Positions 31,344 to 50,158 of a stretch of DNA of 64,000 bases are shown here, piece after piece. Within the stretch, counting starts at the first letter, position 1; each line of letters starts with the position of its first letter. The notes below the pieces were generated by a model. That model was given only the letters and a program-made list of their open reading frames with translations. It did not search any database and was not told the origin of the DNA. The position numbers and the translations under genes were made by a program. The stretch spans positions 3,932-67,931 of the forward strand of contig CAKOIF010000006.1 of assembly GCA_934086485.1 (NCBI GenBank). Reading direction: 5' to 3'. This DNA comes from an uncultured Bacilli bacterium. Its GTDB lineage: Bacteria > Bacillota_I > Bacilli_A > RF39 > UBA660.

Positions 31344-31646
31344 TTATCGAGTAATTTTATTTTCATTATCTAATCTTGAATTAATTTCATTAACAATGTT
31401 AACTATTTCATCATTAATAATAATTTGTTCTTCACTAGATAAATTACTTAAAATTTTATTATAATTACTAGAAAACTCTTCATGCGAAGTAAGTCCTCTG
31501 GTAACTTTTAAAAGCTCCATTAATGAATCAAAATATGCTCTATCAAGTTCTTCAGATGTAAGTTTACTATGAATATCACTACTTTCTAAATGATACTCAC
31601 CAAAACTATTAAAAATTAATGACAAAGCTAGAAAATTATTATTCAT
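31344..31646 (-). CDS. Hypothetical 100-aa protein inserted between grpE and dnaK
   Basis: An ORF that overlaps the grpE stop by 8 nt. No recognisable motif. Confidence 0.4.
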   Translation of the reverse strand: MNNNFLALSLIFNSFGEYHLESSDIHSKLTSEELDRAYFDSLMELLKVTRGLTSHEEFSSNYNKILSNLSSEEQIIINDEIVNIVNEINSRLDNENKITR

Positions 31647-33212: not shown

Positions 33213-33222
33213 AATGTCCTTT

Positions 33223-33249
33223 CTAGCACTTTCTTAACCAAAATGCTAA
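33223..33249. promoter_or_regulatory. CIRCE-like operator 1
   Basis: The minus strand reads TTAGCATTT-N9-AAGTGCTAG, against the consensus TTAGCACTC-N9-GAGTGCTAA. It lies 11 nt upstream of the hrcA ATG. Confidence 0.7.
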
Positions 33250-33268
33250 CATTATTATATTATGCAAA

Positions 33269-33295
33269 TTAGCACTTGTCAATACCTTTTGCTAA
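33269..33295. promoter_or_regulatory. CIRCE-like operator 2
   Basis: TTAGCACTT-N9-TTTTGCTAA (plus strand). It has 9-9-9 spacing but a weaker inverted symmetry. Confidence 0.5.
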
Positions 33296-33319
33296 ATATT
33301 TTTTATAAAAAAATTAATG

Positions 33320-34984
33320 TTATTTTCCTAACACTAATTTTTCTTCTGTAGTTAAGAATTCATTTACTTTAACAGCACTTTTTTGTAAAAAATCTAAAAA
33401 GTCATTAATACTAATACTTGCTTTGAAAGTAACCTCACCCTCATAAAAATCAGTAAACTCTATTAAAGAATCTTTTAAAGTTTCTTTTTGAATAACTTTA
33501 TAGTTTCCATGAGCAATACTATTTCTAATACCATTAATTATTTTTTCATTTTTAATTAATTTTGAATAAGTATTTACATAACTATTTACATTATTTATAG
33601 TAGACTGAATATTTATTAAATCATTATTATATCCACTAAGGTTTACATTAATTATATTTATTTGATTAGTTATTTTATTTATAGCATCAAGTTTTCCCAG
33701 TGAAGTTACTTTTGCTAAACTATTATTACAACTAACTAAAGCATTATTTAATTTATTTATATTATTTTTAATAGCATTTTCTTTTACACCTAAATCAGTA
33801 ATATATCCATCATCTGTTTTTTCCACTTCAACATTAAATGAACTTGTATCTATAAGTGAATAATCAAAACCATCTAAGTCTAAATTTTGATATTCATTTT
33901 TATTATGTAAGACATCATCATAACCATATGCAAATAAAGCATTAAACGAGGATATTAAACTTTGGGCTAAGTCATCAGTGGCTATATAAAGTTTACCATA
34001 TTTTCTTATTATATCATCATGAACTTTTTCATAATTAGATGTTCCTAATTCTTTTATTGAATTAAGAAGTAATAGATTATGAACACCAGAGACAATCATA
34101 CTAAAATTATCAAATTTATCTTTATTAAATAATTTATCAACTTCATATCCTACAATTTCAATAACTCTTTCATATGGCGTATTTGGAGTTGTACTATTAT
34201 AAAGGAAATTTGCTAATACATTTGTATCTTCATTTTTAGTACTAACTTTATTCCAAGAAACCACATAATCCTCTTTAACTTTTCTTTCAAAATTCATAAG
34301 TTCATTTAAATTTAAAGATTTAGAAAACGATGTAACAGTTTCATTAAATTTATCAAATATATATCCCTCAATTGGACTTCCGTCTTTTCTTTTAATTGTA
34401 ATATTATATTTATAATACATAGAAATCATATTTTTATATTCATTTAATGAATATCTTTCTTTATCTTTACCAACCCTGCTTTTAGTGTATACAAAACATC
34501 TTGTAAAAGATGAAGTATTATAATTTTGTAATGTTGAGGAAAATGATGATATAACAAAATTTGTAAGTTTTGGTATCGGAATAACTATATCATTACCTGA
34601 TACTTTTAATATAACTCTGTTATGAGCAAAATCTATCAAATACTCGCCATGACCTAGTTTATTTCTAATCGTAGTAACTAAAGTATAGCTATCTTTAAAA
34701 GTATAACCATTTATTTCATAACCATCTATTGTTTTATTAGCAATTAAATTTACATTTTTTTCCATTAATGAAAAAGGAAGTAAAATATTATTATTTTTAT
34801 CAACCATTTTTTCTTTAATAGCTAAAAATATACTTGAAACATTTCCCATAATAGCTCCATTTAAGTATTCCTTATTAGAAATATATTCACTATAAATAGG
34901 ATTACCAAATATCATCCCCATTAAAAATAAATCATATGCATAATTTCCTGAAAAATATTTTATTATAGTTTCTTCTTTATTCAT
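33320..34984 (-). CDS. Uncharacterised 554-aa protein with two HEPN-type RNxxxHG motifs
   Basis: TTIRNKLGHGEY (R107/H112; nt 34649-34666) and NGIRNSIAHGNY (R487/H492; nt 33509-33526). An Asn-rich coiled-coil-like segment lies between them. No signal peptide or TM segment. Confidence 0.55.
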   Translation of the reverse strand: MNKEETIIKYFSGNYAYDLFLMGMIFGNPIYSEYISNKEYLNGAIMGNVSSIFLAIKEKMVDKNNNILLPFSLMEKNVNLIANKTIDGYEINGYTFKDSYTLVTTIRNKLGHGEYLIDFAHNRVILKVSGNDIVIPIPKLTNFVISSFSSTLQNYNTSSFTRCFVYTKSRVGKDKERYSLNEYKNMISMYYKYNITIKRKDGSPIEGYIFDKFNETVTSFSKSLNLNELMNFERKVKEDYVVSWNKVSTKNEDTNVLANFLYNSTTPNTPYERVIEIVGYEVDKLFNKDKFDNFSMIVSGVHNLLLLNSIKELGTSNYEKVHDDIIRKYGKLYIATDDLAQSLISSFNALFAYGYDDVLHNKNEYQNLDLDGFDYSLIDTSSFNVEVEKTDDGYITDLGVKENAIKNNINKLNNALVSCNNSLAKVTSLGKLDAINKITNQINIINVNLSGYNNDLINIQSTINNVNSYVNTYSKLIKNEKIINGIRNSIAHGNYKVIQKETLKDSLIEFTDFYEGEVTFKASISINDFLDFLQKSAVKVNEFLTTEEKLVLGK

Positions 34985-37029: not shown

Positions 37030-38580
37030 CTAACTTGCTGTGTAAACATCATTATATGTACCACTGCCTGATAACTTTGCTTTAGATGATAGAGAAACGA
37101 CAGGGCGAGCGCCATATGCACCAGTCACAGTAGCGTAGTCCAAATCACCCGATGAAGAAACAAGGAACCCAAAAGCACCATAAATACTGGAAATAGCAGG
37201 CGACCCCGACCAATAATTTTGGTTTGTATACAAATAATATGAACTGTTGCTTGTATTATATACTCCTCCTGCCATTGCTACTTCATCCGCTGTTATTAAT
37301 CCTACTGGGTAGGTTAATGCCTTATTTCCTATACTACTTCCTTTTGATGTAAATTTATCACTTTCTGTTGGACAAGTTAATATTGGTTTTTTATTACTAT
37401 TTAATCTTACATTTGCTCCATAGAAATATGTTGTGCTAGTACTCATACTTCCACTTATTTCTCCTGGGGTTCCACTACTACTTGTTGTTGCACTTCGATC
37501 GTTACAAAATATTTGATCCGCCACTAAACTTTTTGTCGTTGCATCTATTTCCAATGTTGTTGTTTTATACCAATTATCTATTGCTGTTTTTATTGTACTT
37601 GCGGTGCTAGTTCCGTGTTGTGCACTTGCTGTATACATATAACCTACATACTCTGCTTTATTATAACTACTATTAAAGGTATAAGTTGTCGCATTTATTT
37701 GTGTTCCTGTTCCTGTCATTACTGTCGCTGTACTACTTGTTGGAGCCGTTGTACCAGAGTATATCATCCTTATACTTCCATCGCCATTAATTCTGATTAT
37801 TCTCCAGTACATATCTTTATCTCCTTCTTTTCCAAATTTTACCCAGTTATTATTTACTGCCCCCCTAAAGTAATATGACTTCATTCCAGTTGATGCAGTA
37901 TAATCATCATCAGCTTTATATAATCCTTTTTCACTTGCTGTTGTTACTTTACTAAAATCTGGAGTCGTTTCATTTACTGTATTATTTGCTAAAATTGTTT
38001 CCCATCCTTTTTTCTCTAAATCTATTACATCAGAAACCACTTTATTTCCTGCACTATCTTTAATCCATAAATAATACGTTCCTTCTGTTGTTATTGTAGT
38101 ACTTAAATTATAAGATATTCCACTTATTGAGGTCCAACTTGTTGGTTCAGTGCTGTTACTTGTACTTATTCCATAGCCAGATAGTTCTATATTATCAGTA
38201 AGTATTGCAGTTATTGTTGTGTCATTTATAATTAGATTGGATATAACTGGCTTTTCTGTATCAATTATCTTATCAAAATATAGTGAACACCTATCACTAC
38301 CGATAAAAGAGAAACTTACTGTACCTGAAGTACTATCATAGTTTAATACTTTACCATTATTTTCACAAATAGTCTTTTCTTCATTTAAAACATAATTACC
38401 TTTAGGTATTGCATCTGAACTTATATATTCTCCTGATTCACCTTTTACCATTATTGCTAAATTATTTTTCTTCGGTATGTATTTATTTTTAGGTTTATTA
38501 TATATTTTATTTACAAATAAAATACCTCCAATTAAAATTACTAATGATGTTAAAATTATAATTACCTTTTTATTTTTCAT
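37030..38580 (-). CDS. Membrane-anchored surface protein, hypervariable-C-terminus family (member 1)
   Basis: N-terminal signal anchor. Modules are shared with 47392 (KTICENNGKV...GSDRCS) and 61689 (EKPVISNL...GTYYLWIKDSAGNK). C-terminus NYWSGSPA...[variable]...GARPVVSL. Confidence 0.7.
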   Translation of the reverse strand: MKNKKVIIILTSLVILIGGILFVNKIYNKPKNKYIPKKNNLAIMVKGESGEYISSDAIPKGNYVLNEEKTICENNGKVLNYDSTSGTVSFSFIGSDRCSLYFDKIIDTEKPVISNLIINDTTITAILTDNIELSGYGISTSNSTEPTSWTSISGISYNLSTTITTEGTYYLWIKDSAGNKVVSDVIDLEKKGWETILANNTVNETTPDFSKVTTASEKGLYKADDDYTASTGMKSYYFRGAVNNNWVKFGKEGDKDMYWRIIRINGDGSIRMIYSGTTAPTSSTATVMTGTGTQINATTYTFNSSYNKAEYVGYMYTASAQHGTSTASTIKTAIDNWYKTTTLEIDATTKSLVADQIFCNDRSATTSSSGTPGEISGSMSTSTTYFYGANVRLNSNKKPILTCPTESDKFTSKGSSIGNKALTYPVGLITADEVAMAGGVYNTSNSSYYLYTNQNYWSGSPAISSIYGAFGFLVSSSGDLDYATVTGAYGARPVVSLSSKAKLSGSGTYNDVYTAS

Positions 38581-38845: not shown

Positions 38846-40351
38846 CTACTCCACAGTTTTAGTAATGATATTAATTTTATCATTTAGTTTTTTATTTTCC
38901 TCTTTTAAAGAATTATTTTCTTCTTTTAAAGTATTATAATTATCTAAAAGTTCATTATACTTATCGGTGATTTCATCATATTTTTCATTAATATCATCAA
39001 TAATATCAGTTTGATTTTTAATATTTTCATATTCTTTTTCAATATTATTTTTTAAAATATTAATATTTTTTTCATTAGCATAAATTTTAATTATACTATT
39101 ATCTCTAAAGTTATAATTATACACTTTATTATGCTTTAAATTATCGACTAAATCATCAAATATATTTTTAGCATTTACTCCATATTGATGTAAAATAATT
39201 CTATAAACGTAAGCATTTTCTTCAGTATGTGATGTAACAAAATCTGGGTATGTTTCTACTTCAATTTTAATATTATCTAAAGTATTATCAATTACAAATT
39301 CATAATGAGTATTTGTATCAATTAAAAGATTATCTTGCATCTTTACATTAAACTCACTTTTTGTAGTTTTAAACTTTGGAGAAATGCTATTTACATAGTT
39401 AATTTTAGATACCTCAATTGAAAATAATCCAGAACCTATTCCAAATATGGAAAGTGATGCAATTAAAGTAATAAGCATTCTTTTGAAAGGCACTTTCTTA
39501 CTAAATAATAAGTCAAATAAAAATTCTATAGTTAAAATATTTAAGAAAATAGTTGATAATGAAATAAGAATTAAGCCAATGTATGTAAGTCCATTAAAGG
39601 CAAAATATAGTATTATAATAAGTCCTATAAAAAATATAATTAAGGTAACTAGAAATGGAAATGTAAAGCAAGCTATAAAAAATTTAACAAAAACAATTAA
39701 AATATTAGAAAATAAATTAATAAATGAATAATTTTTATTTTCATTTCTATCTTTTTCTTTAATAGGTTTACTTTCCTTTACCTCTTTTGCAAATTTTAAA
39801 TCATTATCTTTTTTTAAATCCATTTTGTCTAAAAAACCTATTTTAAATATATATATCATTACTATAATAAATAAAGCAACATAAGCAAAGTCAAATATAA
39901 ATTCAAAGAAATTTGCCACAAAAATTGTAAAATCATTTTGACTAACGCTTGTTATTAAATTAGTTACTTTATCACTTAATAAGTTAACTGGTAACTTTAA
40001 TATTAATAATGCTAAAAAAGTAAACATCATAACTAAAAAACATTTTGTATTATCAAGAAGTGTATTATTAACAATAAAGTTATAAGTATTTTTTACAAAA
40101 CTAAAGAAACTATCAATTACATTTTTATCTTTATTTTCAGTATTATTAATATCTACCTCATCATTTGTAAGACTATCTAAAGAAACATTAAATATTTTAC
40201 ATATAGCAAGTAGCTTGTCCATTTCTGGGTATGTTTGCCCACTTTCCCATTTTGATACAGATTGTCTTGATACATCAAGTGATGCTGCCAAGTCTTCTTG
40301 ACTCATCTTATTTTCTTTTCTAAGTTTTACTAACTTTTCACTAAAATTCAT
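38846..40351 (-). CDS. Membrane-bound XRE-family HTH regulator with a C-terminal coiled coil
   Basis: N-terminal HTH_3 KLRKENKMSQEDLAASLDVSRQSVSKWESGQTYP, several TM helices, an extracytoplasmic domain, and a heptad-rich tail. Confidence 0.75.
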   Translation of the reverse strand: MNFSEKLVKLRKENKMSQEDLAASLDVSRQSVSKWESGQTYPEMDKLLAICKIFNVSLDSLTNDEVDINNTENKDKNVIDSFFSFVKNTYNFIVNNTLLDNTKCFLVMMFTFLALLILKLPVNLLSDKVTNLITSVSQNDFTIFVANFFEFIFDFAYVALFIIVMIYIFKIGFLDKMDLKKDNDLKFAKEVKESKPIKEKDRNENKNYSFINLFSNILIVFVKFFIACFTFPFLVTLIIFFIGLIIILYFAFNGLTYIGLILISLSTIFLNILTIEFLFDLLFSKKVPFKRMLITLIASLSIFGIGSGLFSIEVSKINYVNSISPKFKTTKSEFNVKMQDNLLIDTNTHYEFVIDNTLDNIKIEVETYPDFVTSHTEENAYVYRIILHQYGVNAKNIFDDLVDNLKHNKVYNYNFRDNSIIKIYANEKNINILKNNIEKEYENIKNQTDIIDDINEKYDEITDKYNELLDNYNTLKEENNSLKEENKKLNDKINIITKTVE

Positions 40352-49156: not shown

Positions 49157-50158
49157 ATGACAGAAAATACTTTATATAATTCAAACAAAAAAGGACAATT
49201 TATGAAAGATAAGTTTGCAAGAGCTATACTAACTAACCCTGCAAATGAAGACTATTTAATAGCACTTTATAACTCATTAGAACCAGATAAAAATATTAAA
49301 GCAATTGGTGCTAAAATAATAACTAATGAAATTAATAATTATAAAGATGCTAAAGAAAGAATTACTGATGCAATAATGGAGGTAGAAACCACTAAAGGAA
49401 TTGATTTAGTTAATTTTGAAGTAAATGCTTTTAAATCTGATAAAATAATTAGAAAGAACCTATCTTATGTTTGCCATATGGTAATTAGAATGGTAGATGA
49501 AAATACGGGAGAATATTACAATAAGGTTGTACAAGTTAATATTAATAATTTTGATAGATTTGGGCAAGGAAAATTTGTATATAAATCAGAACTTTTTCCA
49601 AATGCTGAAGAGTTATTAGTAATATATGACATAAATGTTGCATTATTATCAAAAATGTCATATGATGATTATAGAAAATTTAATAAATTATCAACTGAAT
49701 ATTTATCTATAATTTTTACAAACAACGATGAGAAAATTTTCAAAGGTAATAAAATGATAATGAAAATAGTAAAGGAGTTGGAAGATATGTCAAAAAGTTT
49801 AGATGAGATGCTATACTATAATCCGGAAGAGTTTCTTAAGAAGGCTGCGCTTGATGCAATTACCGATGACATGAAAAAAGAAGCAGCCCAAAAGTCAGTT
49901 ACTGAAGAAATGAAGAAGGAAGCAGCACGAGAATCTGTTACTGATGAAATGAAGAAGGAAGCAGCACGAGAATCTGTTACTGATGAAATGAAAAAAGAAG
50001 CTGCAATTGAAATTGTAATCGAAGAAAATAATATAGCTGCTGCAAAAGAATTAATTAAAAATGGTATATCAAAAGAAATTATCTTAAAATCAATTGATAT
50101 AACTGAAAAACAGTATAATGATCTAAAAAATGAAGTTCAAAAAGAAACTAATAAATAA
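49157..50158 (+). CDS. Rpn/YhgA-like PD-(D/E)XK putative recombination-promoting nuclease with a repetitive C-terminus
   Basis: N-terminal region (ITDAIMEVETTKGIDLVNFEVNAFKSDKIIRKNLSYVCHM) resembles the PDDEXK_2 family. Good RBS AAAGGAGG. Confidence 0.55.
   Translation: MTENTLYNSNKKGQFMKDKFARAILTNPANEDYLIALYNSLEPDKNIKAIGAKIITNEINNYKDAKERITDAIMEVETTKGIDLVNFEVNAFKSDKIIRKNLSYVCHMVIRMVDENTGEYYNKVVQVNINNFDRFGQGKFVYKSELFPNAEELLVIYDINVALLSKMSYDDYRKFNKLSTEYLSIIFTNNDEKIFKGNKMIMKIVKELEDMSKSLDEMLYYNPEEFLKKAALDAITDDMKKEAAQKSVTEEMKKEAARESVTDEMKKEAARESVTDEMKKEAAIEIVIEENNIAAAKELIKNGISKEIILKSIDITEKQYNDLKNEVQKETNK
49859..50014 (+). repeat. About four tandem 39-nt (13-aa) repeats inside the Rpn-like gene
   Basis: Units encode (I/V)T(D/E)(D/E)MKKEAA(Q/R)(K/E)S. 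Units 49898-49936 and 49937-49975 differ at one base. Confidence 0.85.

Follow-up and report, generated by a model that had tools for sequence, protein, structure and literature searches.

Single-chain proteins with two HEPN-like units and no CRISPR array form a chromosomal family in RF39-like gut Bacilli

The window analyzed here is a 64-kb stretch of DNA (contig CAKOIF010000006.1 of assembly GCA_934086485.1, positions 3,932 to 67,931) from an uncultured bacterium of the RF39 lineage of Bacilli. It has ~25% G+C, and almost every gene lies on the minus strand. One of these genes, the subject of this report, encodes a protein of 554 amino acids (aa) with a HEPN-type motif near each end, here called the dual-HEPN protein. 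An earlier note on the window had described the motif pair and conceived of the protein as a compact, single-chain HEPN dimer working independently of CRISPR. The start codon of its gene overlaps the stop codon of the upstream gene (ATGA), which encodes a phosphodiesterase-fold protein and is translationally coupled to it. Genes for two small four-transmembrane (4-TM) proteins lie farther upstream, and hrcA lies on the 3′ side. Coordinates of the locus are collected in Table 1.

Table 1 Features of the dual-HEPN locus, in window positions
Feature	Residues	Position	Strand	Basis
Dual-HEPN protein gene, 554 aa		33320..34984	-	Open reading frame list; homologs align end to end
N motif IRNKLGHGEY (R107, N108, H112, G113)	106-115	34640..34669	-	Regular-expression scan
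C motif IRNSIAHGNY (R487, N488, H492, G493)	486-495	33500..33529	-	Regular-expression scan
N-terminal HEPN-like unit	1-155	34520..34984	-	AlphaFold2, full chain and isolated domain; profile match to C unit
K57-E58, end of second long helix of N unit	57-58	34811..34816	-	Candidate HEPN helix-2 acidic residue
Middle alpha/beta and helical domain	159-392	33809..34510	-	AlphaFold2; family not recognizable
Long antiparallel helical hairpin, helices 1-2 of C unit	393-472	33569..33808	-	AlphaFold2
C-terminal HEPN core	473-545	33350..33568	-	hhalign against pEK499_p136; PF18736 matches
Intergenic region 3′ of the dual-HEPN gene, 107 nt		33213..33319	-	Sequence and promoter scan
Type I phosphodiesterase/nucleotide pyrophosphatase-fold gene, 362 aa		34981..36069	-	PF01663, E 3e-21
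Two paralogous small 4-TM proteins, 141 and 166 aa		36066..36988	-	Upstream of phosphodiesterase

Both motifs, of the form IRNxxxHGxY, were located near opposite ends of the 554-aa protein by a regular-expression scan, just where the earlier note had placed them, and its coordinates 33509-34666 are the exact span from the R107 codon to the H492 codon. No other R-x(4-6)-H site occurs in the chain. At its composition of 1.8% arginine and 1.1% histidine, RNxxxH is expected by chance at 0.013 sites per protein. For IRNxxxHGxY in duplicate the corresponding expectation is ~7e-12, so the motif pair is not a matter of chance.

When 1.84 billion cluster representatives were searched exhaustively with HMMER, 205 relatives were found. 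Within the species, >800 allele sequences make up one 90% cluster. Most are 530-600 aa long and can be aligned from residue 1 to the end, down to ~20% identity. Across 104 full-length homologs, the N motif retains R107 in all 104, N108 in 95, H112 in 101, and G113 in 100, and the C motif retains R487 in 103, N488 in 96, H492 in 102, and G493 in 100. The HEPN signature, R-x4-6-H with a polar residue after the arginine, is kept accordingly in both units (R, N, and H in 91-100% of the homologs), and the motifs are near-invariant even among members as distant as ~20% identity. The two variants differ by unit and are themselves conserved, as RNK-AHG in the N unit and RNS-AHG in the C unit.

Members of the family are chromosomal and confined to RF39-like gut Bacilli. 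Its nearest named records are 'Mycoplasma sp. CAG:472' and metagenome-assembled genomes (MAGs) of uncultured gut Bacilli or 'Tenericutes', which we take to belong to the RF39-like lineage. No source that was looked up gives a name for the protein, the family was previously unnamed, and the full-length window protein had no match above threshold in Pfam, NCBIfam, or PADLOC.

An AlphaFold2 model of the full chain, built on a 95-sequence alignment, predicts one compact body with a predicted local distance difference test score (pLDDT) of 93 and a predicted template modeling score (pTM) of 0.90. The N unit is laid out as helices 3-26/29-36 and 38-60, an insert 61-98, the motif helix 99-111, three strands within 115-136, and a helix 137-152. 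When predicted separately, this domain also folds confidently by itself (pLDDT 93). The C unit is predicted to begin with the long hairpin, followed by the motif helix 474-491, three strands within 495-525, and a helix 526-545. Both motifs are therefore placed at the C-terminal end of a helix that follows two long helices and precedes a three-stranded meander and a final helix, which agrees, at the level of predicted secondary structure, with the placement described for HEPN helix 3 (PMC3710099). An acidic residue in helix 2 has a role in the active sites of many HEPN families (PMC3710099). Its candidate in the N unit is within K57-E58, kept in >90% of family members, and no conserved acidic residue equivalent to E58 was seen in the C unit.

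Between the two units lies a middle domain that is a candidate sensor or regulatory module. A Pfam scan of this domain from 10 diverse members gave no match. The Asn-rich, heptad-like segment at residues ~400-480, pointed out in the earlier note, is real; AlphaFold2 predicts it as two long antiparallel helices, 393-429 and 432-472. In Foldseek, this hairpin matched generic coiled-coil hairpins only, such as the seryl-tRNA synthetase arm and MacA. The likeness of the modeled hairpin to generic RNA- or protein-binding coiled-coil arms, like that of seryl-tRNA synthetase, is only a lead. The hairpin is the least conserved segment of the protein, and column conservation in the middle domain is also below that of the HEPN units.

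The assignment to HEPN was examined by profile comparison. The N and C units aligned with each other in hhalign at 93-95% (E 2.6e-8 to 2.7e-7), the best alignment reaching 95% and E 2.6e-8 over 62 columns. The alignment runs from the motif helix through the strands into the beginning of the last helix, while middle-domain controls scored 1%. By these profile comparisons, the two units are homologs of one another.

The known family closest to the C unit is pEK499_p136 (PF18736), whose namesake is WP_000528932, a 166-aa 'HEPN family nuclease' of plasmid pEK499 scoring 168 bits on PF18736. A reference profile of 61 aligned members was gathered from this seed. The C unit aligned with it at 92% (E 5.4e-7) over 67 columns, from helix 3 and the RN-S-[IV]-AH motif through the beta strands after it to helix 4. 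When C units of 60 members were compared with Pfam, 21 matched pEK499_p136 (best E 2e-5) and 20 matched MAE_28990, with MauJ and RiboL-PSP also found. Among N units of 70 members, 26 gave sub-threshold matches, spread across six HEPN families. The recurrent Pfam matches of either unit were to HEPN families only, and some relatives carry precomputed PF18736 matches at E <= 1e-5. In a global alignment of the N unit with the pEK499_p136 profile, K57-E58 falls on the near-invariant K54-E55 and R107/H112 on R96/H101, although this alignment is not significant by itself.

Helix-end placement, homology between the units, the pEK499_p136 match of the C unit, and the exclusively HEPN recurrent matches agree with the claim that both motifs sit in HEPN-type units. 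The N unit is counted as HEPN because it is homologous to the C unit (95%) and shares its motif and topology. Both units are probably divergent HEPN domains of the pEK499_p136 type, with the C unit supported directly.

The fates of the two motifs are coupled. Among the 104 proteins, the N histidine is lost in three and the C histidine in two, and both C losses are in proteins that also lack the N histidine. The two double-loss proteins, P0148 and P0260, are only 21% identical to each other, so their losses are independent events. The hypergeometric probability of such co-loss from these counts is ~6e-4. This co-loss shows that the two motifs are one selective unit.

We found no sign of a CRISPR system or of another RNA component. 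A search of the 64-kb window with Tandem Repeats Finder, a direct-repeat scan, and Rfam at the gathering threshold gave nothing CRISPR-like, and there was no CRISPR array in 68 related loci. CRISPR-like k-mer arrays in two of these (L035 and L065) were rejected as coding repeats. Rfam families were absent from the window and from the eight related loci that were scanned. The earlier note had seen no array in the window and had supposed the protein to be CRISPR-independent, and the wider search bears out both points. In the gaps flanking dual-HEPN genes, which are often only 0-60 nt, there was no candidate for an antitoxin or noncoding RNA, that is, no small open reading frame (ORF) of >= 25 aa or nucleotide element conserved beyond close relatives.

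In the window, the 107-nt intergenic region on the 3′ side contains the hrcA promoter, with a perfect sigma-70 consensus TTGACA-17-TATAAT, and a CIRCE-like inverted repeat, TTAGCATTT-N9-AAGTGCTAG, ahead of hrcA. The promoter scan found no terminator-like site between the dual-HEPN gene and hrcA. The spacer has no room for an RNA gene or array.

Neighboring genes were compared over 57 loci from 59 species-level genomes. The upstream neighbors belonged to 35 different families and the downstream neighbors to 39, with no partner gene conserved across the loci. The dual-HEPN gene often adjoins, or is co-transcribed with, hrcA-grpE-dnaK, relA-dtd, clpB, or the S10 operon. The phosphodiesterase was rejected as a partner, being upstream only in two related clades, the window clade and one at 38-41% identity (L015/L016/L020). 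A membrane-protein partner was also rejected; proteins with >= 3 transmembrane segments make up 7/35 upstream families (20%) against 48/370 in the background (13%), a small enrichment. A small 4-TM protein accompanies the dual-HEPN gene only in the window clade and in a 47% clade, where the 4-TM homolog is directly upstream.

The suggestion that the protein is activated by its phosphodiesterase-fold and membrane neighbors therefore fails as a family property, as neighbors are diverse and these two are confined to two clades each. Locally it may still be right, since the four genes make up a single tight block. The earlier proposal as a whole is supported in part: one compact chain has two homologous HEPN-type units and no array, while family-wide dependence on neighbors is not supported.

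Several other neighbors deserve mention in their own right. The most widespread recurrent one is a soluble protein of 220-252 aa, encoded directly 5′ of the dual-HEPN gene in six loci of diverse subclades (L019, L024, L025, L030, L033, and L048). It has a kinase-like Gly-rich loop (LGQGCQGVCY...VYKVF), and its gene often overlaps the dual-HEPN gene by 8-11 nt. The 4-TM proteins occur in 2-3 copies among strains of one species (also L069-L078). Farther upstream in the window, 37030-38580 (-) encodes a 516-aa protein that has an N-terminal transmembrane helix and a Ser/Thr-rich body and is not assigned to any family. Its identity to the counterpart in a genome whose DnaK is 99% identical is only ~42%, so it may be a hypervariable surface protein.

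A 501-aa protein at 38846-40351 (-) has an N-terminal Cro/C1-type helix-turn-helix (HTH) domain (PF01381, E 3e-16), several transmembrane segments, and a C-terminal coiled coil; its RmrA-like PADLOC matches run through the HTH domain only. Shorter proteins with HTH and four transmembrane segments are encoded directly 5′ of the dual-HEPN gene in another clade (L038, L041-L043, L058, and L062). The ORF at 49157-50158, one of the few plus-strand genes of the window, includes at 49838-50005 (+) a 39-nt tandem repeat of ~4 copies with 86% matches, which encodes a 13-residue Lys/Glu/Ala-rich repeat.

Sequence change in the window was compared with four close genomes. The identities were 96-100% for HrcA, GrpE, DnaK, and DnaJ, 88-90% for the phosphodiesterase, 74-91% for the dual-HEPN protein, and 26-77% for the hypervariable 4-TM proteins. 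The ratio of nonsynonymous to synonymous substitution rates (dN/dS) was 0.16-0.33 for the dual-HEPN gene, compared with 0.00-0.12 for HrcA, GrpE, DnaK, PepF, and DnaJ, an excess of ~1.3-fold over PepF and roughly 3- to 30-fold over HrcA, DnaK, and DnaJ. A 100-aa ORF without a family match, at 31344-31646 (-) between grpE and dnaK, has a dN/dS of ~0.6-1.0 between close genomes, against 0.00-0.06 for the surrounding chaperone genes.

Alleles at the same position diverge much further. L018, L026, and L027 encode dual-HEPN proteins upstream of the same gene that share 49-52% identity, compared with 84-94% for the flanking proteins, and the protein of L023 shares 43-44% with those of L030/L033 against 91-95% in flanking proteins. 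Allele identity is mosaic along the protein: the window protein and that of L010 are 99% identical in the N unit and 84% in the C core, and the window protein and that of L012 are 70% identical in the middle domain and 95% in the hairpin. Divergence is usually greatest in the middle domain and the coiled-coil hairpin. The gene is also found in different slots of otherwise syntenic neighborhoods, for example in L018 versus L021.

Tandem pairs of dual-HEPN paralogs were observed at four loci (L024, L045, L050, and L051), and a second, broken copy at L059 (8001-9306), in fragments of 149 and 207 aa, is in the same MAG as an intact copy (L022). A mobile-element origin was considered and rejected, as neither INPHARED nor PLSDB gave a match and the sole match in IMG/VR was a single-domain pEK499-like protein. 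This protein, on a viral contig (L080, 4021-6204), has 168 aa and the motif IRNSIAHGH, and its gene is directly 3′ of a 516-aa P-loop ATPase gene, with which it may constitute a two-gene module. In all, the family resembles a conflict gene that is chromosomal and retained vertically but diversifies, more than it does a mobile cassette or a conserved enzyme of housekeeping.

We conceived a mechanism in which the two pEK499_p136-type units (aa 1-155 and aa 393-545) would have arisen by duplication or fusion, each keeping a putative catalytic R-N-x3-H-G motif where its third helix ends. By analogy with Cas13, the units would pack as a pseudo-dimer within one polypeptide and form one composite site. 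This site would be a metal-independent ribonuclease (RNase) leaving 2′,3′-cyclic phosphate ends. The ~230-aa middle domain and the 80-aa hairpin may sense a trigger or choose the RNA substrate, and would hold the nuclease silent until activation leads to RNA cleavage that arrests the cell or the invader. The variable modules are proposed as gate or sensor because they change fastest and because no antitoxin, guide RNA, or fixed partner adjoins the gene. The role would most likely be conflict-related, as an RNase toxin of the abortive-infection or innate-defense type in RF39-like gut Bacilli.

With modest confidence, we lean toward the reading that the gene product is a cytoplasmic, stand-alone, single-chain dual-HEPN RNase, probably conflict-related. 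A bolder version, in which it is an innate, protein-only counterpart of Cas13 whose pre-assembled HEPN pair cleaves RNA collaterally once the hypervariable modules sense a phage or stress cue without any guide, is possible and is offered here tentatively.

A number of results weigh against the favored reading. The comparison with HEPN families proposed in the earlier note was successful for the C unit, but the N unit scored only 10% against the pEK499_p136 profile, being tied to known HEPN domains only via the C unit, and no similarity to Cas13 appeared in the PDB. The full-length window protein did not match PF18736, and its C fragment scored 20.3 bits (E 4.8e-4), below the gathering cut-off of 26.6 bits. 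With PADLOC-DB v2, 7 of the 11 proteins tested had marginal matches (E 5e-4 to 0.05), exclusively to the HEPN parts of reverse transcriptase-associated HEPN and CARF-HEPN models, which assign no defense family. Foldseek searches of the PDB with the full model and the N domain recovered no HEPN or Cas13 structure (E > 0.2, TM-score ~0.2), and nothing significant was found in BFVD with the full model. PDB sequences searched with the protein and with the N and C profiles returned no HEPN protein, only noise and coiled-coil proteins.

Foldseek performs poorly on small helical bundles that contain large inserts, so its null result is not strong negative evidence; the full-model and N-domain searches, returning generic coiled-coil and helical matches only, offer neither structural confirmation nor a rival fold. 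Two independent sites decaying once the protein had lost its function in general would give the same co-loss of the motifs. Concerning a role in defense, the contrary points are that INPHARED phages and PLSDB plasmids contain no family member, that no known defense gene is consistently near the dual-HEPN gene, that the gene is mostly co-directional among housekeeping genes, and that it is at the same locus in 10/10 strain contexts of a very abundant species, identified via identical GrpE.

The same dual-HEPN RNase could have its sites between chains, as a homodimer pairing N with N′ and C with C′, or N with C′ head to tail, with two canonical sites. We regard this arrangement as fairly unlikely. 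HEPN nucleases normally need two chains per active site and, other than Cas13, in which the pair is fused in one polypeptide, typically homodimerize (PMC12165695), and the isolated N domain is predicted to fold confidently alone. The distinct conserved motif variants of the two units are compatible with either model. However, two homologous units per chain throughout the family make homodimerization unnecessary, as in Cas13, and the pTM of the full-chain model indicates a single compact body. The co-loss of motifs cannot separate intramolecular from inter-chain sites, because a general loss of nuclease function would give the same pattern. Mean-field direct-coupling analysis for contacts between the N and C units, with 104 sequences (effective number 103), gave gap and indel artifacts as the top pairs.

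Alternatively, the protein could be a lineage-specific housekeeping or stress RNase, for ribosomal or transfer RNA processing or stress RNA turnover, inherited vertically in RF39-like Bacilli and not acting in defense. The fixed locus among strains and the lack of phage and plasmid members fit this explanation, as do the lack of an antitoxin, the frequent location beside stress and translation genes, and the length and architecture kept to ~20% identity within one bacterial lineage. On the other hand, a housekeeping enzyme is hard to reconcile with same-position alleles of 43-52% identity among neighbors of 84-95%, and with a dN/dS that clearly exceeds the values of the chaperone and peptidase genes next to it. 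Tandem paralogs, a broken copy, two lineages with motifs expected to be catalytically dead, and a slot that varies in otherwise syntenic neighborhoods also argue against it. Overall, we judge this alternative unlikely.

It is improbable that the protein has HEPN-like motifs but is not a nuclease, serving instead as a nucleotide- or RNA-binding scaffold or regulator. The absence of a fold-level HEPN match in Foldseek would agree with such a role, and some HEPN families are non-catalytic (PMC3710099). Those families, however, typically lose the R or the H (PMC3710099), whereas here the R, the polar residue, and the H are near-invariant in both units.

Least probable is an RNA-guided, Cas13-like nuclease related to Cas13an with its guide or array elsewhere in the genome: it would share the size class and two-HEPN architecture of Cas13an, for which an origin by fusion of two defense-type HEPN genes has been proposed (PMC12165695), but the array, repeat, and Rfam searches of the 64 kb and the related loci were negative, the intergenic space is often very short, the PDB contains no Cas13 similar in sequence or fold, the helix order is canonical rather than rearranged as in Cas13an (PMC12165695), and the HEPN units are nearest to pEK499_p136, not AbiD/F.

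The favored reading, a stand-alone single-chain dual-HEPN RNase, was further compared with known systems. The pEK499_p136 family was first defined computationally and is often found on plasmids or near restriction-modification or Pgl genes (PMC3710099). The C unit aligns with it, and a viral single-domain member carries the identical IRNSIAHG string, while the N unit shares K-E in helix 2 and R-N-x3-H in colinear order, in the alignment that is not significant by itself. Known members, however, are single-domain proteins of ~160 aa and presumed homodimers, whereas here two units are in one 554-aa chain with a 230-aa domain between them, and helices 1-2 of the C unit are predicted to be stretched into an 80-residue coiled-coil hairpin. 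As a separate observation, a DUF3800 gene lies no more than a few kb from the HEPN gene on plasmid pEK499 (L006, 746-3160) and likewise on the contig of homolog P0124 (L079, 31727-36853). On the latter, an Abi_2 gene (AbiD/F-type HEPN) is next to DUF3800, which may be coincidence or a recurrent defense-island association.

Cas13b likewise has HEPN domains at both termini of one polypeptide. Cas13 proteins in general have two conserved HEPN motifs per chain, and the presumed intramolecular composite site of the dual-HEPN protein would follow the same principle. They differ from it in that no CRISPR array or guide RNA was found here, nor a recognizable lobe for binding CRISPR RNA, nor a similar sequence or fold in the PDB. 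The earlier note had also set the protein apart from dual-HEPN Cas13 proteins as these are much larger. This argument is outdated and fails because Cas13an enzymes have 429-577 aa (PMC12165695). Cas13an is comparable in size, but its HEPN domains are AbiD/F-like.

Tandem HEPN domains in one protein are also known in Swt1 of eukaryotes and in Csx1 of the MJ1666 type (PMC3710099). In Swt1, the dyad lacks catalytic activity and is joined to PIN. Csx1 has a beta-hairpin right after the motif, as here, but is fused to a CARF/Rossmann sensor and CRISPR-associated. None of the searches with the dual-HEPN protein recovered either family.

The HEPN toxins of the Abi type (Abi2/AbiD/AbiF, AbiV, AbiJ, ApeA, RiboL-PSP, and MAE_28990) are similar in their R-[NDH]-x3-H motif, single-gene or small-operon organization, and rapid evolution, and both units have weak, sub-threshold matches to MAE_28990, RiboL-PSP, ApeA, and Abi_2. 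These toxins, though, have one HEPN domain each, and a double-domain architecture is not described for their families. Moreover, AbiF has an associated noncoding RNA (PMC12165695), whereas neither such an RNA nor an antitoxin was found here. HEPN RNase toxins were already known; a lineage-restricted, CRISPR-independent, single-chain dual-HEPN family is new.

Fusion of the HEPN pair in one polypeptide is regarded as the event that founded type VI CRISPR systems, and the family provides a natural system in which to ask what such a fusion brings when no RNA guide is involved. If it is indeed a protein-only counterpart of Cas13, it would be an independent or pre-CRISPR-like case, in the reduced genomes of RF39 gut Bacilli, of the fusion of two HEPN genes proposed for the origin of Cas13. 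The family may also bring to light a new module for sensing triggers. Annotation of thousands of gut metagenome contigs would gain from a family model and a name. To our knowledge, the defense repertoire of RF39-like Bacilli is poorly known, and the dual-HEPN family adds a candidate immune or toxin gene to these abundant, uncultured bacteria of the human gut.

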